A stretch of 12,570 nt of DNA from Nitrosotalea sp. GTDB taxonomy: Archaea > Halobacteriota > Syntropharchaeia > Alkanophagales > Methanospirareceae. The notes beneath the pieces were generated by a model. The model had not been told where the DNA came from. It saw nothing but the letters and a program-made list of their open reading frames with translations, and searched no databases. This document shows positions 2 through 12,570 of this stretch, piece by piece. A program made the translations under genes and the position numbers. The DNA is taken from the NCBI GenBank assembly GCA_020725315.1, contig DYFG01000037.1, forward strand, positions 1 through 12,570. The letters run 5' to 3'. Positions within the stretch are counted from its first letter, which is position 1; every line of letters begins with the position of its first letter.

Positions 2-53
2 GAACGAAATTCAGAAAACAACATCTTTATAAACTTAAAGTGCGGAATATGGG
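2..53. repeat. Left arm of a perfect 52-bp inverted repeat whose partner is 12519..12570. Position 1 is unpaired only because the window ends, so the IR may extend outward.
   Basis: By-hand reverse complement of 12519..12570 is identical to 2..53 (gaacgaaattcagaaaacaacatctttataaacttaaagtgcggaatatggg). Position 54 versus the complement of 12518 is the first mismatch. Confidence 0.9.
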
Positions 54-580
54 CTGTAAGCGGAAATAGCATCTTCGTAGCTTCCCCTATCAAATGTTTT
101 CTTTGCATCTTCCGATAAAGAGATGCCGATCGCATTTTTACCTGCGATTATGCTCTTCTTCACATTATAAATGTTCTTTTCAATCGCTTTTACAAGCCCT
201 TCATCCTTAAGCCCTTCTGCACCGCTTCTTGCTTCTATGAATTTTCTCAATGATTCCTGGTATTTTCCAATCGATTTCTCATAATCTTTTACTTCGAATA
301 ATCTTGTTGCTTCAGTTGCGAGTCTCTGTGCGGTATCAAATAATCCAGGAGTTGTCTTTTTCCATTCCTCACGCTCCCCTATCTTGACTCTCAGTGTGGC
401 AATGTCTCTCTCCACTTCTTCCACCTTCTTCGGGTCTTTCAGCTTTGATCTTATTGCATTTGCTTCGGATTCGAGTCCTTCCGTGTTCAAAGAGTTTAGT
501 TCCCTCTCGAGTTGCTTTAATCGCTGGACCCTATTTTCATACTCTACAAGTTTCCGTTCTATGAGGGATAGGTCTTTCAT
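35..580 (-). CDS. 181-aa charged coiled-coil protein of unknown function. Its last six codons (PYSAL-stop) lie inside the left IR.
   Basis: Intact ORF. Its ATG overlaps the TGA of the upstream gene as ATGA at 577-580. E/K/R-rich heptad-like sequence and TAA stop at 35-37. Confidence 0.6.
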   Translation of the reverse strand: MKDLSLIERKLVEYENRVQRLKQLERELNSLNTEGLESEANAIRSKLKDPKKVEEVERDIATLRVKIGEREEWKKTTPGLFDTAQRLATEATRLFEVKDYEKSIGKYQESLRKFIEARSGAEGLKDEGLVKAIEKNIYNVKKSIIAGKNAIGISLSEDAKKTFDRGSYEDAISAYSPYSAL

Positions 581-1608
581 TTCAGCATCTCCTCCAGTTT
601 ATCATCTCCTTTATAGCCTTCCTCTTTCAATTGCTCGTATCTGGTCTTTAACACCAGATATTCCTTCCGCTTCTTCTTATTTCTTCTAACTACAAATCCA
701 GCGCCTGTAAAGGCAGCAATGAGCACCACTCCACCGATATAAATGTAGTTATTATTAATTGTTGGAGCAAAGTCAAAGCTGTTTAGCACACCGTCGCCAT
801 CTATATCAATAGCAATGCTCATAGCTTGATTTACAAGCTCTTTTGCTATCTCATATTTCCCGGTGCTTAAAGCCTGTTCTGCCTGAAAAAGTAAAGCCTC
901 CGCTTTAGCCATGTTAAAGCCTTTGGCTTTCTCTGATTCTATTGTTTTCTTTGCCTCTCTTATACCATCCTCGGCAAAAACTTTAAGATTGTCGAAAAAG
1001 TAAACATTATTATCACCAGATCCTGCTGCTATATAAGAGCCATCAGAAGAGACAGAGACACTTTTAACATCTTTACCTGTCTTATAGCTCCAAATAAGCT
1101 TTCCTTCTCTGTTGAAGAAGTAAGTATTGTTATCCCTAGACCCAGCTGCTATATAAGAGCCATCAGAAGAGACTGAGACACCCCAAACCTGATCGCCTGT
1201 CTCATAGCTCCAAATAAGCTTTCCCTCTCTGTTGAAGTAGTAAACATTGTAATCCATAGACCCAGCTGCTATATAAGAGCCATCAGAAGAGACTGAGACA
1301 CTACAAACCGGATAGCCTGTCTTATAGCCCCAAATAAGCTTTCCCTCTCTGTTGAAGAAGTAAACTTTAGTATCATCAGACCCAGCTGCTATATAAGAGC
1401 CATCAGAAGAGACTGAGACACTATTAACCAAACCACCTGTCTCATAGCTCCATAGAAGCCCGTAGTCTTCTTGTGTTCCCTCTGCCTGAGCTACGCTAAT
1501 TAAAAGAAATAAGATTGTAATTATCCCAATTGTCTTCGTCACTTCTTCAGCTTTTTCAGCTAACCTGAGCCACTCCCCTGATGCTCTTTTATTCATTCCA
1601 ATACTCAT
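577..1608 (-). CDS. Membrane-anchored beta-propeller repeat protein (YVTN/PQQ/WD40-like 40-aa blades). It has an N-terminal signal anchor, a C-terminal transmembrane helix and a basic tail.
   Basis: Repeated motif SVSVSSDGSYIAAGSxDxxVYFFNREGKLIWSYxTG occurs four times. Hydrophobic segments are TIGIITILFLLISVAQA (N-terminal) and IGGVVLIAAFTGAGFVV followed by RRNKKKRK (C-terminal). Alternative ATG at 1596. Confidence 0.8.
   Translation of the reverse strand: MSIGMNKRASGEWLRLAEKAEEVTKTIGIITILFLLISVAQAEGTQEDYGLLWSYETGGLVNSVSVSSDGSYIAAGSDDTKVYFFNREGKLIWGYKTGYPVCSVSVSSDGSYIAAGSMDYNVYYFNREGKLIWSYETGDQVWGVSVSSDGSYIAAGSRDNNTYFFNREGKLIWSYKTGKDVKSVSVSSDGSYIAAGSGDNNVYFFDNLKVFAEDGIREAKKTIESEKAKGFNMAKAEALLFQAEQALSTGKYEIAKELVNQAMSIAIDIDGDGVLNSFDFAPTINNNYIYIGGVVLIAAFTGAGFVVRRNKKKRKEYLVLKTRYEQLKEEGYKGDDKLEEMLK
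985..1460. repeat. About four tandem copies of a 120-bp coding repeat (1021-1140, 1141-1260, 1261-1380, 1381-~1460, plus a partial copy upstream), each encoding one propeller blade.
   Basis: The 60-nt sequence lines align in perfect 120-nt register. The block cccagctgctatataagagccatcagaagagactgagaca recurs almost unchanged, as does ctt/ctcatagctccaaataagctttccctctctgttgaag. Confidence 0.9.
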
Positions 1609-1724: not shown

Positions 1725-1940
1725 TCATGACATAATATCCATGGATGCACGTTCAAGTTTAACCCTATCTCCAACCTTCACACACAACACATCCCTCACC
1801 GTTTTATTAATCCTTATCACATCCATGTCATCATTGACACCCAGCGGTTGAACTGTTACAATCTGCTTCTGCTCATCAAACACGATTCTCGCGTGGTCAA
1901 TCTTTCGCAGACCCAATCGTTCCATTATTACAGGATGCAC
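1725..1940 (-). CDS. Small 71-aa hypothetical protein with a GTG start (or ATG at 1925). It could be an AbrB/SpoVT-like swapped-hairpin DNA binder, but this is very tentative.
   Basis: ORF only. The KVGDRVKLE-type segment is weakly reminiscent of looped-hinge-helix proteins. It overlaps ORF 1897..2100 by 44 nt in another frame. Confidence 0.3.
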   Translation of the reverse strand: MHPVIMERLGLRKIDHARIVFDEQKQIVTVQPLGVNDDMDVIRINKTVRDVLCVKVGDRVKLERASMDIMS

Positions 1941-2100
1941 AACCGCGTCTCTCGAACCTTTCTTGACTTATTCGACCATCTCCGCAATCCTGAGTATCCT
2001 CCTCGAAGGTATGAAATTCGTAGAGCCGCAATAGGTATTTGTAATTCTCTTCAATTGATTTCACCCATTCCAGATGCTGATGGATGAGTTCGCTATCCAT
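1897..2100 (-). CDS. Small 67-aa hypothetical protein lying 8 nt downstream of the SPFH gene. It may be spurious or a remnant.
   Basis: ORF with a GGAG 13 nt upstream of the ATG. It contains three Cys (CGDG...CASC) and overlaps the 1725..1940 ORF. Confidence 0.25.
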   Translation of the reverse strand: MDSELIHQHLEWVKSIEENYKYLLRLYEFHTFEEDTQDCGDGRISQERFERRGCASCNNGTIGSAKD

Positions 2101-2108
2101 AGATAGGA

Positions 2109-3761
2109 TTACTCCTTGCGCCCAATCGCCGTTCCGCAGTTCGTGCAGAACCTCGTGCCAACTGGCAGTTCAGCATTACATCCTGGGCAGATGATAACCT
2201 TCTTCACTTCATAAACAGGTGGGACTGGTTGTGCACCCCCGCCTATTACCACAGGTTGTCCATATCCTCCGCCCGTGACAACCGTTGTGCCTCCGGGTTC
2301 TGCATCCCGCGCCCTCGTAGCAGCCGTAGTCCCCATCTGTTCAAGTGCCTTCGCAGCCATACGTTCTATTCTATCCCCGCCTTTATCCGCAATCTCCTGT
2401 GTAGTCCGTGCAAGTGCCTCCTTATCGCCAAGCCTATCCTCGTATATCTTCATAATCTCCTCAGCGCTCTTCGATTTGTATCTCTCTTTGAACGCCTCGG
2501 CAATTGCAACGCTGTCCCTTGCACCGAGCGCGAGTATCTGCTCGTCTGTAAGACCAGTAGCTAATTTCATTCTCGCCAATTCGCTGAGATATTCTGCCTG
2601 TTTACCCTCTACCATAGATATGAGCGCCTCATCGGTAGCGGCTGAGCGTGCCTTAACCCTCTCTTCTTCTAACTCCGCCTCTATCTTCATCCTCTCAAGC
2701 CCAAGTTCTTGATAGCCAGCCACGTCCTCACGTTTTACTGCTTTCATCGCTTTTAGCAGTTCGATGCCTTCTCTTGCAGCTCTTGCATCCTCCTCGTCTT
2801 CTTTCCGCTCTTTCTCAAGTTCATGTAAATGCCGTTCCATATCCATCTCCAGTTCGTGCCGCTGTTCAACTCGTCTCAGCATCAACCTCCGTGCAAATGC
2901 TCTATCCTCTTGATTATCCTCAAATATCCGTTTGAGCTCGTTCATCTCGTTCTCTCTTATGACTTTATCCCTGTCAAGCTCGTGCAAAAACTTCTCAAGG
3001 TCTTCTACATTCTTGAATTCGTCCATCTTATCATCGGTGAGCCGTGCACGCATCCGCTTCTTGAGTTCGAGTCGCTCATCCTCAAGACCCTCTACTCGCT
3101 CCTCTAAGCCAAGCTTCGCGCCTTCCTTCCCAATATAAGCCCTTTTTTCAATCAAATCCTTCCAATAACTTTCGTCGTAGTCAAAATACGGCATATACAC
3201 GAGTTTAAGACAAACTCTGCTCAGTGTTGTATTCAGTAGATGTTCAAAGTCCTGTTCAAGCTCTTTTTTCAAGTCTAAATTACCGTACAAATCCTCGAAC
3301 GAATACTGCTTGACCTTTGATTGCAGTAAATTCAGCATTTCATTCCTCAGCATAGCTTCAACGTCTGCCGTCGTTATGTGCTCCCTGCCTTTCATAAGAT
3401 TATTGAAGAATAGTATCGGATCCTCAACATTCACAACTATCTTCCCCTTCACACCCGCATCAAAGTTCTCTTTTGTTCTCAGTCCTCCAATGTTGAAGTA
3501 GAGCCCAACATCTGAGTCGTCCACTAATATTACGGTCGCCTTTTCCGCAAGGTTCAGCGTCTTTATCACCTGGATAAGCCCGCCAACGGTGTATGTTCCG
3601 GGTGGTAACTCTCCGAAGAATCTCCCTCCTTGCAAGAATATCGCCTTCGTTCCTGATGTAACGGTTATTTTCTTGCTAAAAAACCCTTTTATGTCACTGA
3701 CCTCGATTCGCTCTGCAAAGTCGTTCGGGTTCCTTTGCCATACGCTTATTTTACCAAACAT
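2109..3761 (-). CDS. 550-aa SPFH (band-7/stomatin/flotillin-like) domain protein. After the SPFH domain it has a long E/R/A-rich coiled coil, a Gly-rich linker and a C-terminal CxxC...CxxC zinc ribbon.
   Basis: The N-terminal ~200 aa follow the SPFH pattern (ITVTSGTKAIFLQGGRFFGELPPGTYTV ... TKENFDAGVKGKIVVNVEDPILFF ... MLRNEMLNLLQSKV ... LSRVCLKLVYM). The C-terminus is CPGCNAELPVGTRFCTNCG. A strong SD AGGAGGTGA lies 7 nt before the ATG, and the stop is TAA. Confidence 0.7.
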   Translation of the reverse strand: MFGKISVWQRNPNDFAERIEVSDIKGFFSKKITVTSGTKAIFLQGGRFFGELPPGTYTVGGLIQVIKTLNLAEKATVILVDDSDVGLYFNIGGLRTKENFDAGVKGKIVVNVEDPILFFNNLMKGREHITTADVEAMLRNEMLNLLQSKVKQYSFEDLYGNLDLKKELEQDFEHLLNTTLSRVCLKLVYMPYFDYDESYWKDLIEKRAYIGKEGAKLGLEERVEGLEDERLELKKRMRARLTDDKMDEFKNVEDLEKFLHELDRDKVIRENEMNELKRIFEDNQEDRAFARRLMLRRVEQRHELEMDMERHLHELEKERKEDEEDARAAREGIELLKAMKAVKREDVAGYQELGLERMKIEAELEEERVKARSAATDEALISMVEGKQAEYLSELARMKLATGLTDEQILALGARDSVAIAEAFKERYKSKSAEEIMKIYEDRLGDKEALARTTQEIADKGGDRIERMAAKALEQMGTTAATRARDAEPGGTTVVTGGGYGQPVVIGGGAQPVPPVYEVKKVIICPGCNAELPVGTRFCTNCGTAIGRKE

Positions 3762-3782
3762 CTTTCTATCACCTCCTATTTT

Positions 3783-4271
3783 TCACCTCACAACCCGCAT
3801 TTTAAACTTAACAGCTTGAATACCTGCTCGGCACCATTTCATGTACTCAAGGCATGCTTTTCGATTAGCTTTCCTCTCCCTACTGAACTCTATTTGCAGA
3901 GACTTGTTGAAATGTTCAAACGCAGTTTTGAGAATGGATAGCGCCTCCTTGTAGCCAGAAAGCGCATCGTCCAGGTCACCAACCGCATCAGACGCCCATG
4001 CAAGATAATAAGGATAGAATGCCTTATCTGTATGTGCAAGACCAATCCTGCTATGATACGAAGCAGTGTAACCTTGTGCTTTGGCGATTTCCGCAGCTTC
4101 CATCCTGAACGAACTGGCTGAGAGCATGTATCTTGCTCTTTCTGTTTTATCCTGCTCCGCCATCTGATGCCAGAGTGAAACCGCCTTGTCATACAACTCG
4201 ATTACAACCTCTTTATTCCGTTCTTTAAGTGCTCTTTCCTTGTATTCTATTGCCTGTTCCCACAGTTCCAT
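3783..4271 (-). CDS. 162-aa all-helical (TPR-like?) protein of unknown function.
   Basis: Intact ORF 3 nt downstream of the 4275..5477 stop. A GAGGTGA SD is embedded in the upstream gene end, and the stop is TGA. Confidence 0.55.
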   Translation of the reverse strand: MELWEQAIEYKERALKERNKEVVIELYDKAVSLWHQMAEQDKTERARYMLSASSFRMEAAEIAKAQGYTASYHSRIGLAHTDKAFYPYYLAWASDAVGDLDDALSGYKEALSILKTAFEHFNKSLQIEFSRERKANRKACLEYMKWCRAGIQAVKFKMRVVR

Positions 4272-4274
4272 TTT

Positions 4275-5477
4275 TCACCTCACCAGCAACAAAACATCCT
4301 TCGCACCCTCTTCCGGTGTTATGATCTCCCCTTTTCCATCTTCCACCATCTCCCTGAATGCACCCACCACTACCTTCCTCGGCACCTGATATTTCGATGC
4401 AACCTTATCAGCCCTGAACTGTAGCACGCCCTCTTTTACATCTTCTTCGAGCTCACTAATCATATTCTCAATCTCCTCCTCCATCGAAACAGGCACGAAC
4501 CACTCCGCAAACTGCTTCGTCTTCTTATCGCTCTCGTTGAAAAACACCTTTCTTTCGCTTAAATCCACGAGATAAACGCTTTTGTTCACGTTCCTGATAT
4601 TTTCTACCTTATCAATAATCCATTCGGTCCATCCTGTAGGTGATACCAGAACCAAAGCACCAAACGAATTCTTCTCACCTTCACCTGCTTGTATAAACCC
4701 GGTAATCATATCAGAGACTTCTTTTCCTATTTTTCGGTAAATAAAACATTCTTCATCTTCTGGAACGATGAATTTAATGTTGAACCCAACAGAAACGCGT
4801 TCACGAATTACCCCTTTTGTAATCTTCGCAGTTATTCCCTCTTTCTCAATATCAATCTTCCAAGCCTCTTTATCGTATTCCTCTTCCGTTAGTGGATTGA
4901 CCACGCCTTGACTCGCGAGACGCGATTGCAATAGGAAGAAATAATTCAACCGCACGAACTCAACATCCTCCTGCGTGAGCACGCTATCCCGTATCTTCTC
5001 TGCATCTTCTGCCAGAACGTTATCAATCGCATTTTTCGTCTTTTCCAACTCCTCCATCTGCTCCTTCACATTTTCGGATAACTGCGCGATGGTCTGTAAT
5101 TCATTACTCATGCGTTCTCGCTGCTCAGCTTCAAATTCCTTTATTCTGCTTTCAAGCTTCTGTTCACGCTCTAAAATCGCTTGCTGCTGCATCGCAATTT
5201 CTTCTTCGCGTTTCTTCATCTGAAGCTTCTTCTGCTTCCATTCATTCACCATAGCTGCGACGACGCTTTTCACCTCCTCAACGCCTTCGCCAATCAATTC
5301 CTTTATGGCTTGTCGGTATCTAATATCCTCAACGTGTTCCCGGTATTCATCTATGGACTCTCTCTGTGATTTTATGTTCTCCTCAAGAGCTCTTGTCTCT
5401 TCTAAAAGTCGTTGCGCCTCTCCAAGCACATCACCCATCGTGCCGGTATCTTTGAAAAACAAGGGCTGCTTCTCCAT
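4275..5477 (-). CDS. 400-aa protein with an N-terminal ~200-aa charged coiled coil and a C-terminal ~200-aa globular domain of unknown function. No Walker A motif is present.
   Basis: Intact ORF with an ATG at 5477 five nt after the upstream TAG and a TGA stop. The composition is coiled-coil (EEIAMQQQAILEREQKLESRIKEFEAEQRER) followed by a mixed alpha/beta-looking C-terminus. Confidence 0.6.
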   Translation of the reverse strand: MEKQPLFFKDTGTMGDVLGEAQRLLEETRALEENIKSQRESIDEYREHVEDIRYRQAIKELIGEGVEEVKSVVAAMVNEWKQKKLQMKKREEEIAMQQQAILEREQKLESRIKEFEAEQRERMSNELQTIAQLSENVKEQMEELEKTKNAIDNVLAEDAEKIRDSVLTQEDVEFVRLNYFFLLQSRLASQGVVNPLTEEEYDKEAWKIDIEKEGITAKITKGVIRERVSVGFNIKFIVPEDEECFIYRKIGKEVSDMITGFIQAGEGEKNSFGALVLVSPTGWTEWIIDKVENIRNVNKSVYLVDLSERKVFFNESDKKTKQFAEWFVPVSMEEEIENMISELEEDVKEGVLQFRADKVASKYQVPRKVVVGAFREMVEDGKGEIITPEEGAKDVLLLVR

Positions 5478-5482
5478 GCGGA

Positions 5483-5986
5483 CTACACCCCCTGCGCCAT
5501 ATTCTTTATGAGGAAGTCCGTTCTGTATAGGAAGATGTTCCTCAAGTTGTCTAAGCTCCGCTTCACTGTTCTTACCTGTAGAATAATGTCCGAAGTCTCG
5601 CCCTTGAGCACATGGTCATACACGAGGTCTGCCGCCTTCGTTATTATTTCTAACTCGCTTAATAACTCTTTATCAAATTCCACCATTCTATCCACTACCT
5701 CATCCGATACCTTATCCTGCTTAAATAAGGGCGATAGTCAAAAAGAGGCATTATCTATTTCGTTTCTGAACAGGTCTAAGGTATTGAGAATGTCTTTGAT
5801 ATGCTCTACTACCTCCCTCCTTCCGTCCTTATAAGCTAAATCGCTAACCTCTTTCAACGTATTATACGACTTTTTCAATTCCCTTGAAAGTTTGTCTCTT
5901 ACCGCACGGTCTGAATTGAGTCTGTTCTTCTTTACTCGATAGTCATAACCCGGTATGATCTTCTCCATCAATTTTCCCATATCCAT
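5483..5986 (-). pseudogene. Possible single ~166-codon gene interrupted by an in-frame TGA at 5738..5740. As annotated it is two small ORFs, 5738..5986 (82 aa) and 5483..5695 (70 aa, GTG start).
   Basis: Both ORFs are in the same minus-strand frame (5986-5695=291=3x97). The 14 codons between the TGA and the next start are open (LSPLFKQDKVSDEV). A GGGGTGA SD lies 5 nt before the ATG at 5986. Confidence 0.4.
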
Positions 5987-8548: not shown

Positions 8549-9085
8549 ATGATATACGACATTAATGTCGGATATACCGAAGTTAGGCGACATTTTGCTT
8601 GGCGGTGCGAGAAAATGAACGAAAAAACAATAAACAAAGATAAAAGGTATCTGCTTATATTGCCATGCTCCAAACGTAAGAAGAGAATCTCTGAGGCACG
8701 CGCCATAGAATTATATGATGGCCCATTTTATAGGATGGTTAGAAAGAGCGGGTTGATGAACTTAAATATTTTAATTCTATCGGCAAAATACGGCTTAATT
8801 AATGCTTGTGACAATATTTCTTCTTATGACCAAGTAATGAGTGCTCAGAGGGCGAAAGAGTTAGCGGAAGGAGTTAAACTTAAATTAGAGAAAGTACTAG
8901 AAAATAACGGTTACGACGAGATATTCATAAATCTTGGTAAAACATACACGCTTGCGTTAGAAAACAGCAACAAAATTCTTAACGATTACGATGTTTACTG
9001 GGCAAGAGGGCAAATCGGAGAAAGATTAAATCAACTTAAAAGATGGTTGCGTAGAATCGAGTTGGAAAATGGTGGTAAATTATGA
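8549..9085 (+). CDS. 178-aa hypothetical protein, first gene of the helicase-nuclease operon. The true start may be the internal ATG (MNEKTINK). Its function is unknown.
   Basis: Its TGA stop overlaps the helicase ATG as ATGA at 9082-9085. Conserved-looking segments are KRYLLILPCSKRK, ELYDGPFYRMV and ILILSAKYGLINA. GC is low. Confidence 0.6.
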   Translation: MIYDINVGYTEVRRHFAWRCEKMNEKTINKDKRYLLILPCSKRKKRISEARAIELYDGPFYRMVRKSGLMNLNILILSAKYGLINACDNISSYDQVMSAQRAKELAEGVKLKLEKVLENNGYDEIFINLGKTYTLALENSNKILNDYDVYWARGQIGERLNQLKRWLRRIELENGGKL

Positions 9086-9645
9086 TTACTTGGAATGACT
9101 TTCAAAATACTGTTTTTACTCAACTAGGTAGAGACATTAGAAGACAAAGTAACCCTGACCAAAACGCTGCTATACAAGCCCCTCCAAATCACTCTTTATT
9201 CATAGTCTCTGGGCCAGGCAGTGGAAAGACAACAGTAATTACCCTGAGGGTTCTGAAATTAATTTTTGTGGACGACATAAATCCCTTAAATATTTTAGTT
9301 ACAACTTTTACACGAAAGGCTGCCGCTGAACTGAGATCAAGGGTTCTTGGATGGGGAGACCAACTGAGACGTGCATTTATAAATAATTCATCTTACTATC
9401 CCGTTAGGAATCAACTACAAAGATTAGATTTCAACAGAATAATTACGGGGACTTTGGACAGTATCTCGGAGGAAAAATTAGGAGAGTACCGTGCTCCAGG
9501 CACTCCACCACCACCAGTAGTCATTGAGGATTTTGTCTCAAATGCATTGATGATAAGGGTTGGGCTTTTTGGGCACGGTAGACACAATAATCCGGTTCTC
9601 AGAGATTATATCATCCAATTAAGTGGATCTGCCTTTGGTGGTTAA
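9082..9645 (+). CDS. UvrD-like helicase N-terminal fragment (Q motif, Walker A, motif Ia/Ib).
   Basis: GPGSGKTT and TFTRKAAAELR are present. The ORF ends with TAA at 9643-9645, 23 nt after the next fragment starts in the +1 frame. Confidence 0.8.
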   Translation: MITWNDFQNTVFTQLGRDIRRQSNPDQNAAIQAPPNHSLFIVSGPGSGKTTVITLRVLKLIFVDDINPLNILVTTFTRKAAAELRSRVLGWGDQLRRAFINNSSYYPVRNQLQRLDFNRIITGTLDSISEEKLGEYRAPGTPPPPVVIEDFVSNALMIRVGLFGHGRHNNPVLRDYIIQLSGSAFGG

Positions 9646-10174
9646 CGTTGGTGAGATGAGTGCTACGCTAAGGGAGATAAAAGATAGGTTCTTTCATGAC
9701 AAAGTAAATGTTAATCGCTTCAGGAGTCTGAGTAACCACCCAGGTATTGGGGTGGCGTGCGATGCTATAGATGATTATAACCAAGAATTACAAAGTCGCC
9801 TTCTTTTCGATTTTGCGAGACTGGAGATAGAATTCCTTGAACGGCTTCGAGCAGGCGTGTTGAATAATTTTCTTCAAAATATAAGATTCATTTTGGTTGA
9901 CGAATATCAGGACACAAACTTACTTCAAGAACAAATCTATTTTGAGCTTGCGAGAGCAGCATTACAAAATGGAGGCAGCATCACAGTTGTTGGTGATGAT
10001 GACCAATCTCTCTATCGTTTTCGTGGTGCAACAGTCGATCTTTTTCAAGCATTTCCAAATAGAGTCAATAATCACTTGGTGATAAGCCCTGTGACTGTGT
10101 ATCTCTCTCAAAACTACCGCTCTACGCCGAATATTGTACGTTTTGTAAATGATTTTGTTACCTTAGATACGTGA
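9623..10174 (+). CDS. UvrD-like helicase middle fragment (motifs II, III, IV), GTG start.
   Basis: DEYQDT, GDDDQSLYRFRGA and QNYRS are present. It ends at an in-frame TGA, and the frame reopens immediately after. Confidence 0.8.
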   Translation: MDLPLVVNVGEMSATLREIKDRFFHDKVNVNRFRSLSNHPGIGVACDAIDDYNQELQSRLLFDFARLEIEFLERLRAGVLNNFLQNIRFILVDEYQDTNLLQEQIYFELARAALQNGGSITVVGDDDQSLYRFRGATVDLFQAFPNRVNNHLVISPVTVYLSQNYRSTPNIVRFVNDFVTLDT

Positions 10175-10189
10175 TTTCAAAACGCCAGA

Positions 10190-11461
10190 GTGACAGGTAA
10201 ACCCCGGATTAGAGCATCACGCCCAACAACACCCCAACGTTATATTAATTATCCAGTTTTAGGAATGTTCCGGGACGATGTTGGCACCCTTGCCCACGAG
10301 CTAGCGCAATTTGTTCATAGAGTAGTTCATAGGGGGGGATTTCAAATAAGGCATCAAGGTAACCGTTATACAATACGAATTAGTCCTCAAGGTGGCTCAC
10401 CAACGGACGTTGCTATGTTGTGCAGTTCACCACGAGAGTTGGCTTCTAATGGTAATCCAAGACTTCCTTTACTTTTGGATGATGAGTTGAGGCGCATGAG
10501 CCCACCAATTCAAGTTTTTAATCCAAGAGGTCAAAATTTAGAGAGAATCCCAGAAGTTCAAAGATTATGCGGTTTAATTTTGGAGTGTATAGATCCTGAT
10601 AGCAACATCCAAAATAGCATAGTGACATTGCCTCAAGCAGCGGTAACTATCTTTAATGCTTGGCGTGCCGAGGCTACGAACCTTGTAAATAGTAATCCAT
10701 CTCCCACCGCTCCAATCAATCTTAGACAATTCGTCAATGCGTGGCAGCGCAGAACCCCCTTACGTAGAAGAATGCAGACCAGAGAGGAAGTACCATTGCT
10801 AGATCTGGTTTACAAGTTGGTCACATGGATACCTCCTATGCAAAATGATATAGAAGGTTTAGTGTATCTAGAGGCAATAACTCGGGCAATCAGTCAAAGT
10901 GCATTGTTTGGTAACTTTGGTGCTGAAATAATCTTTGACCCTAGTAATCCTAATAGTAGGTTAGAGCAAGCTTCAATAAGAGAAGCACTTTGGAATATAT
11001 TTATGCCACTTGCAACTGGTGCAATCGAAATTGATGAAGACCTTCTTGAAACTTTACCAAGCGACAGAATAAACATCATGTCAATTCATCAGGCAAAAGG
11101 ATTAGAGTTTCCTCTGGTGATAGTGGATGTAGGAAGTGACTTTAGATATGATCATTGGAAGCAAGCATTTAAACGCTTTCCACGGCTAAACAATATAGGA
11201 AGAGTGGATGGTGTAAAAAGCCTGAATATGGAAGATGAATTAAGAAAGCACTCCCCCTTAGGACAATCTTCAAGATCAAGTTTAGATAGAGCATTCGATG
11301 ATTTAATAAGACATTATTTTGTAGCCTTTAGTAGGGCCCAAGATGTCCTATTATTAGTTGGTTTAAACTCTGTAAGAAGTGGTATTCCCAACATCGCCAC
11401 AGGATGGGATAGAAATGGAAGCTGGTATTGGAGGAGGTTAACCAATTTGGTGCATATTTAG
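10190..11461 (+). CDS. UvrD-like helicase C-terminal fragment (2B-domain region, motifs V and VI), GTG start, in the same frame as 9623..10174.
   Basis: IHQAKGLEFPLVIV and YVAFSRAQDVLLLVG are present. The TAG stop at 11459-11461 abuts the SD of the next gene. Confidence 0.8.
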   Translation: MTGKPRIRASRPTTPQRYINYPVLGMFRDDVGTLAHELAQFVHRVVHRGGFQIRHQGNRYTIRISPQGGSPTDVAMLCSSPRELASNGNPRLPLLLDDELRRMSPPIQVFNPRGQNLERIPEVQRLCGLILECIDPDSNIQNSIVTLPQAAVTIFNAWRAEATNLVNSNPSPTAPINLRQFVNAWQRRTPLRRRMQTREEVPLLDLVYKLVTWIPPMQNDIEGLVYLEAITRAISQSALFGNFGAEIIFDPSNPNSRLEQASIREALWNIFMPLATGAIEIDEDLLETLPSDRINIMSIHQAKGLEFPLVIVDVGSDFRYDHWKQAFKRFPRLNNIGRVDGVKSLNMEDELRKHSPLGQSSRSSLDRAFDDLIRHYFVAFSRAQDVLLLVGLNSVRSGIPNIATGWDRNGSWYWRRLTNLVHI

Positions 11462-11465
11462 GAGG
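11461..11465 (+). promoter_or_regulatory. Shine-Dalgarno GGAGG for the nuclease gene, 7 nt upstream of ATG 11473.
   Basis: ttaGGAGGaaaaaatATG. Confidence 0.6.
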
Positions 11466-11472
11466 AAAAAAT

Positions 11473-12537
11473 ATGTCATTGTCTGTTAGACCGAGACCAT
11501 ACATAATCCCTGAGTATAGTTTAACTGGCGACCTACTAGCATATCTTACCTGCGGGTTGCAATATAGATACCACAATAAGGGCTCTCTCCCTCCCTCTAC
11601 ACCTGTTCAGCTATGGTTTGGAGAATTCATACACAGTGTTATGGAAGAAGCATATCGTAGATGGCAAGATGAAACCTCGGAACAGCGTTTTCCATGGAAT
11701 TGGGATCCTGACGTACGCGATATCGAACTTGAAGTTGAAAGGAGACTAGAGGCAAGAGGTCTGTATGCTCCATTCGGTCTTTTTTGCGCATACGGATTGA
11801 CCCAAAGCCGACAATGCACCTGCTATACTAGAAATCCACCTCGTCAACATCAACTTATTGCGAGTCAGAGAACTGAGTCAGCAATCAATACTTGGGGACA
11901 ACACCTATTTCCACTTATTGCAGAAGCCGAAGTGAGACTTAAGGGTAGCAGAGACATGCCAAACTATCAACCCAATATTAGCAGGTCTAACTATTACGGA
12001 GTTACAGGCGTTATAGACGTAATAAGCTCTGTTAACCTTATCAATGCGCCACCGGGAAATTTAATTCTTCACTATATTCATCAGCATACGGAAGTGAGCC
12101 AAATAATAAATAATCTCGCTTCACAAGAGTATGAAATTATCATTGATTATAAAGGTATGAGAAGACCTGCTACTAATAGCCGTCTCTGGCAACATCATGA
12201 ATGGCAGATACTTACCTATACTTGGCTTAGGTCTCAACAACCGCAATCACGACCTATAGCTGCAGGAATAATTTTCTATCTTAATGAGTTGGCTTTATCC
12301 GGGGAAGATGTGGAAGAATTAAGAGATGATGTCGCGAGCAGTCTTACGGATGTGATGCCATCCGGACAGGACTTAAATAGAATACAAAACTGGCGGCGAG
12401 GAACGCCACCGCCCGTCCTCACACGTCCGTTTAGGGAGCAAAGGTCAATTAGAATTATACCAGTCAATGATACCGCTGTGCAAAATAGCCTTCAAAGATT
12501 TGATAATGTTGTATCTACCCCATATTCCGCACTTTAA
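11473..12537 (+). CDS. RecB-family PD-(D/E)xK nuclease (Cas4/AddB-like PDDEXK_1 fold), 354 aa from the SD-preceded ATG. The upstream-extended ORF 11428.. has no SD. The last five codons lie in the right IR.
   Basis: It has the N-terminal Cas4/RecB-like motif SLTGDLLAYLTCGLQYRY, motif II GVIDVIS, motif III IIIDYKG (hhhDYK) and the downstream QxxxY (QILTY). The stop is TAA at 12535-12537. Confidence 0.7.
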   Translation: MSLSVRPRPYIIPEYSLTGDLLAYLTCGLQYRYHNKGSLPPSTPVQLWFGEFIHSVMEEAYRRWQDETSEQRFPWNWDPDVRDIELEVERRLEARGLYAPFGLFCAYGLTQSRQCTCYTRNPPRQHQLIASQRTESAINTWGQHLFPLIAEAEVRLKGSRDMPNYQPNISRSNYYGVTGVIDVISSVNLINAPPGNLILHYIHQHTEVSQIINNLASQEYEIIIDYKGMRRPATNSRLWQHHEWQILTYTWLRSQQPQSRPIAAGIIFYLNELALSGEDVEELRDDVASSLTDVMPSGQDLNRIQNWRRGTPPPVLTRPFREQRSIRIIPVNDTAVQNSLQRFDNVVSTPYSAL

Positions 12538-12570
12538 GTTTATAAAGATGTTGTTTTCTGAATTTCGTTC
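12519..12570. repeat. Right arm of the perfect 52-bp inverted repeat. It contains the last five codons and the TAA stop of CDS 11473..12537, followed by a T-rich tract.
   Basis: Exact reverse-complement identity to 2..53. It runs to the last base of the window. Confidence 0.9.

Follow-up and report, generated by a model that had tools for sequence, protein, structure and literature searches.

An archaeal operon encoding an SPFH/zinc-ribbon protein together with putative ESCRT-associated partners

A minus-strand operon built around an SPFH/zinc-ribbon protein seems rather likely to represent the cytoplasmic scaffold/adaptor module of euryarchaeal ESCRT-type membrane-remodelling and protein-sorting systems. 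The module matches the euryarchaeal ESCRT-like systems described by Makarova et al. (2024) because of the homology of its 400-aa protein (g400), the MIT domain predicted in its 162-aa protein (g162) and the related loci that lie next to Vps4 genes. The window, i.e. the whole stretch of DNA that was analysed, is the 12,570-nt contig DYFG01000037.1, in which the following features are relevant:

35..580, minus strand: 181-aa coiled-coil protein, possible accessory gene; Pfam MIT 5.3e-5, below cut-off
577..1608, minus strand: WD40 gene; Pfam WD40/PQQ_2, TM segments at about 21-45 and 288-308
1725..2100, minus strand: disrupted or uncertain region; 67-aa ORF 2100-1897 (g67) overlapping a CDC48_N-like ORF 1940-1725
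2109..3761, minus strand: g550, 550 aa; SPFH (33-184), long coiled coil, low-complexity linker and zinc ribbon (525-545)
3783..4271, minus strand: g162, 162 aa, variable accessory gene for a predicted stand-alone TPR-like and MIT-domain protein
4275..5477, minus strand: g400, 400 aa; three-helix bundle/coiled coil (11-156), alpha/beta globular core and C-terminal winged helix
5483..5986, minus strand: g168, one gene of 167 codons; four-helix protein with an N-terminal IPGYDYR motif and an in-frame TGA at 5740-5738

All five minus-strand ORFs listed in the initial annotation (5986->5483, 5477->4275, 4271->3783, 3761->2109 and 2100->1897) are present. The gaps between them, from g168 to g67, amount to 5, 3, 21 and 8 nt, in agreement with the 3-21 nt given there, and GGAGGTGA-type SD motifs precede g168, g400, g162, g550 and g67, as had also been described. 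The last of these ORFs calls for a correction: g67 has no homologue in 76 other loci and overlaps the CDC48_N-like ORF by 44 nt. The latter matches Pfam CDC48_N (E 5.5e-8, 33.3 bits, just under the cut-off of 35.1), a double-psi beta-barrel (DPBB), and its PDB matches are all CDC48/VAT N-domains or DPBB designs. It lacks an SD motif, and the barrel frame runs on upstream through an in-frame TAA. A homologue of the 1725..2100 region was not found in the other loci; P0308 combines a CDC48_N domain with a g400-like protein as a fusion. Further downstream, the WD40 gene has similar propeller genes after SPFH in three related loci (L007, L020, L036). The gene of the 181-aa protein overlaps it by 4 nt, has no homologue in the other loci and enters a terminal repeat with its 3' end. 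This perfect inverted repeat of at least 75 nt, the sole notable one, has its two copies at the contig termini, and both terminal ORFs extend into it; it therefore marks the contig ends and does not flank the operon, contrary to the accessory segment bounded by inverted repeats that had been proposed. PDC-M57A-, UvrD- and Cas4-like genes lie elsewhere in the window.

The first gene of the operon, g168, had been described as an interrupted pair of products of 82 and 70 aa. The interruption was confirmed, but the two products are one 167-aa gene: 5986-5738 and 5695-5483 share one frame and are parted by a single TGA, while g168 is uninterrupted (165-190 aa) in all other loci. The TGA replaces a near-invariant Gly (TCT TTT TGA CTA in the window versus TCT TAT GGA TTA in relatives) and is unique to this copy among more than 60 loci. 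In the AF2 model (pLDDT 84) g168 consists of four long helices. No other member of the module is as well conserved, and 27 of 27 family members match NCBIfam NF047596 (LIMLP_15305 family). No relation of g168 to any ESCRT component was detectable. An identity with arCOG08177, an inactivated Cas2 plus TBP/DUF3568 (PMC10936438), was rejected: g168 is all-helical and lacks the YLxVVDYxxD-AERKRxEY motif of the Cas2-like beta-alpha N-domain, and hhalign gives only 0.4% against the genuine arCOG08177-like gene of locus L018. The g168 family is new in the sense that it seems to be missing from the component lists of Makarova et al. (2024).

The second protein, g400, is judged from profile comparisons to be an arCOG09748-type ESCRT-associated coiled-coil/winged-helix protein. 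Its AF2 model (pLDDT 84) shows the coiled coil, here within a helical bundle, and the C-terminal globular part that had been predicted, and the architecture fits the published combination of coiled coil, unknown globular domain and winged helix; the globular core is a novel alpha/beta domain (SPTGW...VYLVDL). Comparison with the arCOG09748-type "ESCRT system" winged-helix proteins, a class containing P0300, yielded an hhalign probability of 99.8% (E 1.4e-28), and P0300, which is encoded directly downstream of a gene bearing the arCOG08177 signature, was matched at E 2.9e-9 in a profile search (1.8e9 sequences). The homology spans the C-terminal ~430 residues of these proteins, whose N-terminal helical domain is missing from g400. 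Thus, g400 has the ESCRT-II-like winged helix expected of an arCOG09748-type protein.

Next in the operon, g162 is likewise assigned by profile similarity and appears to carry a Vps4-type MIT domain. The Pfam matches to MIT (5e-5) and to TPR are both below cut-off; in the search of the family profile against the PDB, the MIT domains of VPS4A, VPS4B and SKD1 account for six of the eight matches (E 0.006-0.12 for VPS4A/B). The putative MIT domains reside on stand-alone proteins and not on Vps4. Relatives of g162 are restricted to L004 and three copies in L005/L015, and about 43 internal residues are deleted in frame relative to paralogues.

The largest protein, g550, combines SPFH, coiled coil and zinc ribbon in the manner of a published component of archaeal ESCRT-like loci (PMC10936438). 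In line with the predicted SPFH domain, long coiled coil and zinc ribbon, Pfam identifies Band_7 (PF01145; 32.7 bits against a cut-off of 23.6, E 9.5e-8, residues 33-184) and Zn_Ribbon_1 at the C-terminus; Band_7 is also precomputed for most homologues. These are 605-675 aa long, and nearly all have an N-terminal double zinc ribbon (DZR, ~82 aa) that is deleted in frame in g550. As had been noted, an NfeD partner is missing, with no match among the window or neighbouring proteins. With g400 an arCOG09748-type winged-helix protein, g162 a putative MIT protein and the SPFH protein a known ESCRT-like component, the earlier description of the partners as uncharacterised coiled-coil proteins is too simple.

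Given the nonsense codon, the two in-frame deletions and the broken CDC48_N ORF, the present copy is probably in decay or retains only part of its function. A non-functional relic, whatever the ancestral function, has somewhat less than an even chance: a UvrD helicase near the operon is likewise split into three ORFs, and in an independent assembly (L002) the sequence recurs without a difference over 4.2 kb, a span that takes in the g550 deletion and the g67/g71 region. However, the remaining codons are well conserved (g168 is 82% identical to P0174) and both deletions are in frame, so any decay would be very recent. Moreover, the TGA of g168 falls into the loop that joins helices 2 and 3 and an SD-like motif precedes a downstream ATG, so the two halves could still be made separately, and the second assembly does not reach the TGA, which may be a sequencing or assembly error.

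The co-function that had been postulated for the operon genes is supported by their neighbourhoods. In 61 of the 64 informative loci no more than 40 nt separate g168 from the start of a g400-family gene, and this gene pair is essentially invariant. An SPFH gene was seen in 37 loci, adjacent in 11, after a cassette in 7 and divergent in 19; the remainder are mostly short contigs. Where the SPFH/zinc-ribbon gene follows a cassette, the latter is variable and 0-8 kb long, and the part conserved across loci is the three-gene core only. This linkage spans ANME-2/Methanosarcinales, Methanoperedens, Methanomicrobiales, Thermoplasmatota and Haloarculaceae, so the missing linkage that would have refuted the initial proposal is not what the loci show. 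The cassette domains (ZnR, TPR, HEAT/Adaptin_N, PQQ/WD40, CARDB/PEGA/TRAP_beta, FHA, STK) are the vocabulary of the published loci; kinases, FHA domains and an SPFH-FHA fusion are present in related loci.

Vps4-family ATPases adjoin the module in haloarchaeal, Methanoperedens and Methanoregula-type loci, and Vps4_C-positive ones are adjacent in four independent lineages. L018 unites arCOG08177, arCOG09748, Vps4, a g168-like gene and SPFH: in the order 221 aa, AAA 393, g168-like, DZR-SPFH, the g168 homologue (hhalign 98.5%) stands between the Vps4 and SPFH genes, and the 608-aa SPFH protein matches the g550 profile at 4e-69 and occupies the position of arCOG15283. In L034 a 202-aa gene and an AAA+Vps4_C gene precede g168; in L069 g400 is convergent with a 192-aa gene and AAA+Vps4_C; in L007 and L062 an AAA+Vps4_C+DAC gene lies 5 kb upstream on the same strand; L019 and L078 have the order g400-like, ~240 aa, AAA. 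HMMER and Pfam give no Snf7 match for the genes of ~200 aa that precede Vps4, and their putative ESCRT-III identity is based on position and the published arCOG07402 assignment in a similar locus. The contig contains neither an AAA ATPase/Vps4 nor a recognisable ESCRT-III, and none was found within 10 kb of the module in the most closely related loci (ANME-2/Methanosarcinales-type); this layout in ANME-2-like archaea is new.

An alternative is an autonomous SPFH scaffold working without Vps4/ESCRT-III, in which the SPFH oligomer with g168-g400 would organise or protect membrane patches like the bacterial YdjI-PspA stress module. Where Vps4 does occur nearby, this would be a sign of common ancestry and not of a common function. 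We consider it unlikely. Most loci, including all closest relatives, lack Vps4 within 10 kb, the three-gene core alone is conserved, g550 has a weak Band_7_1 (YdjI-type) signal (marginal E 0.015) and, as in YdjI, no TM segment, and a link of SPFH to PspA is known in Bacillus subtilis (PMC10936438, PMC7619361). However, the operon apparently encodes an MIT domain, by which Vps4 characteristically binds ESCRT-III, the homologues of g400 form a family that was defined by occurring in Vps4 loci, Vps4 genes adjoin the module in the lineages named above, and a PspA-like gene was not seen in the loci. The membrane-microdomain scaffold suggested by the initial annotation is compatible with the ESCRT-type reading, but a KD scan found no TM segment, and hence no membrane anchor, in the four core proteins.

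A defence module was also among the earlier suggestions. Such a defence or conflict system, housed in a variable genomic island, would use the core for sensing or scaffolding and the zinc-ribbon/repeat cassette for diversifying recognition; it is highly improbable. Its surroundings would fit: HEPN-MNT pairs, HicA, integrases, transposases and type I-D cas genes beside related loci, the PDC-M57A/UvrD/Cas4-like genes of the window, an IS605 TnpB inserted in L034, FGE-sulfatase, Fic and DAC domains nearby in Methanoperedens, a hypervariable cassette rich in repeat domains and the frequent gene decay in the window copy. Yet no PADLOC-DB v2 model was matched significantly by the core proteins (coiled-coil noise of E >= 0.007 for g400, nothing at all for g162, g550 and g67), a nuclease, toxin or further effector conserved together with the core is lacking, the module genes were not found on viral contigs, sequence identity follows taxonomy across orders, and the homology leads to ESCRT-associated proteins.

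Among known systems, Meth_adaptin (Makarova et al. 2024, mBio; Methanosalsum zhilinae WP_013898571-578) comes close. Its loci encode a coiled-coil/wHTH protein of 399 aa, Vps4 and ESCRT-III divergent from the SPFH-coiled-coil-zinc-ribbon protein arCOG15283 (PMC10936438), and share with the module these two proteins, zinc-ribbon accessory proteins and a Methanosarcinales host; g400 was likened to WP_013898572 by description and g550 to arCOG15283 (WP_013898576, WP_087715646) by architecture and position. In contrast to the window operon, Vps4 and ESCRT-III lie between the genes, adaptin-appendage, GOLD and ProX proteins are added, and a g168-like gene, which in the module always precedes the winged-helix gene, is not listed; the SPFH homologues of the module are larger (605-675 aa) and have an N-terminal DZR. 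The Main and Halo_FHA systems consist of arCOG08177, arCOG09748, Vps4 and ESCRT-III, with or without STK/STP/FHA genes (PMC10936438). They also have a small gene ahead of the winged-helix gene, but g168 is unrelated to the Cas2-like/TBP arCOG08177, and Vps4/ESCRT-III are missing here. B. subtilis ydjFGHI (PspA, zinc-ribbon YdjG, YdjH, SPFH YdjI) likewise ties a TM-less SPFH protein functionally to zinc ribbons, which in the module are fused to it, and also to an ESCRT-III-superfamily polymer (PMC10936438, PMC7619361); PspA/ESCRT-III is lacking in the window operon, and g168, g400 and the MIT protein are unrelated to YdjG/H. SPFH-NfeD pairs (stomatin/HflKC-type operons) share the SPFH domain and, behind it, a coiled-coil region for oligomerisation, whereas the module has no NfeD, no TM/hairpin anchor, terminal zinc ribbons and wholly different partners.

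In the favoured ESCRT-type scaffold/adaptor, the SPFH protein would oligomerise via its SPFH domain and coiled coil, forming a ring or cup on the cytoplasmic side of the membrane, and a g168-g400 complex would link this assembly to ESCRT-III-type polymers through the winged helix. The polymers would be remodelled by the Vps4 ATPase, whose gene belongs to the locus itself in Haloarculaceae, Methanoperedens and Methanoregula-type loci but presumably lies elsewhere in the genome in ANME-2-like archaea. MIT proteins may bind MIM-like tails, and the swappable cassette proteins (zinc ribbon plus TPR, HEAT/adaptin-like, beta-propeller or Ig-like) may serve as cargo or partner adaptors. Weighing against this reading are the absence of Vps4 and ESCRT-III from the contig and from the surroundings of its closest relatives, the failure of the ~200-aa genes to match Snf7, the missing relation of g168 to ESCRT components and the lack of a membrane anchor in the core proteins. 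A bolder proposal, in our view very unlikely, is that in ANME-2-like and related archaea g168-g400-SPFH is an autonomous Vps4-independent sorting/coat machine, in which g168, with distant relatives in Leptospira, polymerises or acts on membranes in place of ESCRT-III and the zinc-ribbon-tagged TPR, HEAT/adaptin-like, propeller and Ig proteins are plug-in cargo adaptors. If true, prokaryotes would possess an analogue of coat/adaptor systems that has so far gone unrecognised.

Ideas on the origin of eukaryotic membrane trafficking draw centrally on the archaeal ESCRT-like systems, of which, to our knowledge, no euryarchaeal version has been studied experimentally. The present loci indicate that the arCOG09748-type winged-helix protein and the SPFH/zinc-ribbon protein form a conserved unit which persists without neighbouring Vps4/ESCRT-III in methane-cycling archaea (ANME-2-like, Methanoperedens, Methanoregula). 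This unit includes the highly conserved 167-aa helical g168, apparently missing from published component lists, and recruits swappable zinc-ribbon-tagged interaction proteins, adaptin-like HEAT repeats among them. With g168, g400 and the putative MIT protein, small and concrete targets are available for binding and structural work on SPFH-ESCRT coupling.

The minus-strand operon is most probably a scaffold/adaptor module of a euryarchaeal ESCRT-type machinery. Together with the genes that follow it, it comprises:

5483..5986, minus strand: g168, gene for a four-helix protein
4275..5477, minus strand: g400, gene for a coiled-coil protein with a winged helix (wH)
3783..4271, minus strand: g162, gene for a putative MIT-domain protein
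2109..3761, minus strand: g550, gene for an SPFH/zinc-ribbon (ZnR) protein
2100-1897, minus strand: 67-aa ORF
1940-1725, minus strand: CDC48_N-like ORF
577..1608, minus strand: WD40/PQQ gene

The five ORFs from g168 to the 67-aa ORF were all found as initially annotated, and their tight spacing was borne out by gaps of 5, 3, 21 and 8 nt and by GGAGGTGA-type Shine-Dalgarno (SD) motifs upstream of g168, g400, g162, g550 and the 67-aa ORF. The CDC48_N-like ORF shares a 44-nt overlap with the 67-aa ORF; it has no SD motif and its reading frame extends upstream across a TAA. Its match to the CDC48_N double-psi barrel lies slightly below the Pfam cut-off (E 5.5e-8), and its PDB matches are all CDC48/VAT N-domains. 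Three tandem 120-nt repeats (990-1459, 83-86 % identical) in the WD40/PQQ gene correspond to propeller blades.

The link to ESCRT-type systems comes foremost from g400. An exhaustive profile search over 1.84 billion representatives returned 62 matches, about 45 of them remote, in which positions ~250-390 match the C-terminal part of proteins of either ~400 aa or ~600-670 aa. Among the remote matches is P0300 (E 2.9e-9), a 674-aa protein of a member of the Haloarculaceae, whose gene lies immediately 3' of a 173-aa gene bearing the exact arCOG08177 signature EYLYVVEYDSDAERKRVEYLF and thus occupies the position of arCOG09748, which is listed in the survey of archaeal ESCRT-like systems as 'ESCRT system protein with C-terminal wHTH' (Makarova et al. 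2024, PMC10936438). In a profile-profile alignment (hhalign) against fifteen ~650-aa proteins the g400 family reached 99.8 % probability (E 1.4e-28, 352 columns), with g400 residues 32-391 aligned to the last ~430 residues of these longer sequences. By sequence, g400 is therefore of the arCOG09748 type but lacks the helical domain at the N-terminus. A Foldseek search of g400 against the PDB gave wH and three-helix-bundle matches alone, and the central domain was unmatched.

The product of g162 shows repeated sub-threshold matches to Pfam MIT and TPR. With the family profile, six of eight PDB matches were MIT domains of VPS4A, VPS4B and SKD1 (best E 0.006), and the alignment spans the canonical helix 2-3 motif. 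The assignment of the 550-aa protein as SPFH plus zinc ribbon was upheld by matches above the Pfam cut-offs for Band_7 and Zn_Ribbon_1. When g168, g400 and g550 were compared by sequence with PDB entries, nothing significant emerged, and the literature on LIMLP_15305, the NCBIfam family matched by g168 proteins, was uninformative. A scan for hydrophobic segments found none in the four core proteins and two in the downstream WD40/PQQ protein.

Conservation of gene linkage was examined in 57 metagenome loci for which g168 served as the anchor, in 8 loci of named MAGs and in several exact look-up contexts. The initial proposal that these genes belong together is supported in other archaeal loci: a g400-family gene begins at most 40 nt after g168 in 61 of the 64 loci informative for the downstream gene. 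Of the three exceptions, two have technical causes; in the third, L034, an IS605 OrfB/TnpB gene (Cas12f-like TNB; 3255-4229, minus strand) stands at the expected place of g400, right after Vps4 and g168, and probably represents an insertion disrupting that locus. Of the 37 loci in which the SPFH/zinc-ribbon gene was found, 11 (Methanoperedens and Thermoplasmatota types) have it directly adjacent and 19 (Methanoregula type) have it in divergent orientation; in 7 (ANME-2/Methanosarcinales type, to which the window is most closely related) it follows on the same strand after a cassette of 0-8 kb. The loci in which it was not seen are mostly contigs too short to judge. The best-conserved member is g168, with about 60 % identity in Methanoregula versus about 22 % for g400. 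The gene g162 is accessory: apart from L004 it was seen solely in Methanogaster, where three copies stand in tandem. The 67/71-aa and 181-aa ORFs are confined to the window contig (no homologue of the 67-aa ORF across 76 other loci).

Several of these loci carry Vps4. In L018 (Haloarculaceae) a 221-aa gene, a 393-aa AAA ATPase, a 173-aa gene and a 608-aa protein with double zinc ribbon (DZR), SPFH and ZnR (4e-69 against the g550 profile) are divergent from the arCOG08177-type gene and P0300; the 173-aa gene between AAA and SPFH is homologous to g168 (hhalign 98.5 %, E 3e-15). The same layout is found in Natronolimnobius baerhuensis, for which the survey lists an FHA-CdvA-like protein, SPFH arCOG15283, Vps4, ESCRT-III arCOG07402 and arCOG08177 (PMC10936438). 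An ATPase with Vps4_C over the Pfam cut-off lies directly 5' of g168 in L034 and convergent to g400 in L069, and the order g400-like gene, ~240-aa gene, AAA is present in L019 and L078. The Meth_adaptin loci of Methanosalsum and Methanococcoides, as described in the survey, consist of a ~399-aa CC-wHTH protein, Vps4 and ESCRT-III, divergent from SPFH-CC-ZnR (PMC10936438). In Methanoperedens-type loci (L007:932-2722, L062:3353-5143) a 597-aa fusion of AAA, Vps4_C and a C-terminal diadenylate cyclase (DAC/DisA_N) is encoded 5 kb upstream of g168 on the same strand, preceded by a ~210-aa gene. From their position, the small genes 5' of Vps4 may be of ESCRT-III type; searched for Snf7 with HMMER against the PDB and with Pfam, they gave no matches. 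P0308 (L077:8001-9701; 566 aa) starts with a TM segment and joins a CDC48_N domain to a C-terminal region resembling g400. This fusion connects CDC48_N with the wH-protein family, and thereby the window's CDC48_N-like ORF with the system.

Two observations count against an ESCRT-type module: Vps4 and ESCRT-III are absent from the window contig and from the 10-kb flanks in the closest relatives, and g168 has no detectable relation to known ESCRT components. Its identification as arCOG08177 was rejected, as fold and motif differ. So was an origin of g168 by gene fission, as a detached helical N-terminal domain of arCOG09748 (hhalign 0.2 %; both coexist in L018). The operon might instead encode an SPFH scaffold acting autonomously, which is considered rather unlikely.

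Most products of the genes between g400 and SPFH, or right after SPFH, are interaction proteins tagged with zinc ribbons. The set comprises HEAT+CARDB, TRAM+CARDB+ZnR, ZnR-TPR, TPR-ZnR, beta-trefoil+CARDB+ZnR, PQQ+CARDB+DZR, HEAT plus ZnR with a significant match to Adaptin_N, Ig-like proteins of PEGA/TRAP-beta type, kinases, FHA proteins and a fusion of SPFH with FHA. The same domain vocabulary is found in the archaeal ESCRT neighbourhoods covered by the survey (PMC10936438). The Adaptin_N-type HEAT-repeat protein (L036:10468-11547; 60 bits versus a Pfam cut-off of 37; C-terminal zinc ribbon) is encoded directly after the SPFH gene. In P0169 (L014:1753-3975) SPFH is fused to three FHA domains in place of the coiled-coil/zinc-ribbon tail; genes for large uncharacterised proteins follow, along with those for two Ser/Thr kinases and one FHA protein. 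FGE-sulfatase-domain proteins recur beside the module (L007:5983-7599, L062:5212-8166, L019:2515-4434), one fused to a Ser/Thr kinase, and in L062 a Fic-domain protein lies directly 5' of g168. A defence or conflict system, which island-like contexts might suggest, is improbable, as PADLOC, effector and viral support was not obtained; scans of viral contigs were empty.

The window instance is damaged. The first gene, suspected of being interrupted, does contain a stop in the window sequence: its 82-aa and 70-aa ORFs lie in one frame, and their sole separator is a TGA at 5740-5738. All related loci have the g168 family gene as one continuous ORF (about 165-190 aa), and the TGA occupies a near-invariant glycine position (YG[LMQ]SP; TCT TTT TGA CTA in the window versus TCT TAT GGA TTA in relatives). 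Programmed recoding was rejected because an N-gap in the scaffold accounts for the similar split in L073 and every other locus has GGN at this position; the TGA stems from either a nonsense point change or an error in assembly. Its position corresponds to the loop predicted to connect helices 2 and 3. Just downstream (5686-5710) an SD-like GAGGT precedes an in-frame ATG (5686) by ~10 nt, and two half-proteins could conceivably still be made. Furthermore, homologues of g550 mostly have 605-675 aa versus 550 aa in the window, where the N-terminal double zinc ribbon is cleanly deleted (MFGKI|SVWQRNPNDF versus MFGKIKCSVCG...EEKGKIRVWQRNPNDF). The extra residues are these ribbons, and a C-terminal extension matching the 67/71-aa ORFs was rejected. 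Likewise, g162 lacks about 43 internal residues compared with the three Methanogaster paralogues. That the copy is a decaying relic is a serious possibility, held just short of being favoured and compatible with the other readings.

The window corresponds approximately to the whole JGI metagenome contig Ga0246235_101006 (12,619 nt), reverse-complemented; apart from three clustered substitutions inside an MFS transporter gene (6465, 6469, 6477) both are identical. The 4.2 kb shared with an independent second assembly (Logan SRR13164376), which extend from the g168 3' end into the WD40 gene, show no difference. The operon had been placed inside an accessory segment bounded by inverted repeats. 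The only significant inverted repeat, perfect and at least 75 nt long, reaches both contig ends (window 2-53 and 12519-12570; contig L001 5-79 and 12545-12619) and does not flank the operon. Both terminal ORFs run into it and terminate in PYSAL*, and none of the 77 other loci contains it. The repeat, whether an artefact of assembly or a repeated element at the flanks, marks assembly break-points and not the boundaries of a mobile or accessory segment. An Rfam scan was empty, and a sigma-70 promoter and terminator scan stayed at background level, the sigma-70 model not being applicable to Archaea. The plus-strand region 8549-12537 looks like a candidate defence module, itself degraded: a DUF6884 protein matches the PADLOC candidate PDC-M57A (E 2e-12), a UvrD-like helicase is split into three ORFs (9082-9645, 9623-10174, 10190-11461) and a PD-(D/E)XK Cas4-like protein is encoded at 11428-12537.

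From these homologies and gene linkages we infer the following interactions for an ESCRT-type module. The SPFH-coiled-coil protein would form an oligomeric platform at the membrane, and a g168-g400 complex would link it via the winged helix to ESCRT-III-type polymers. These would be remodelled by Vps4, with its gene in cis in certain lineages and, presumably, in trans in ANME-2-like ones, and MIT proteins and zinc-ribbon-tagged repeat proteins may serve as regulators or adaptors. The kind of system is already known (Makarova et al. 2024, PMC10936438), and no later description was found in the literature. New are the bracketed architecture devoid of Vps4 and ESCRT-III in methane-cycling archaea, the zinc-ribbon-tagged cassette and the recognition of g168, which is not visible in the component tables consulted from the survey, as an invariant and highly conserved partner.
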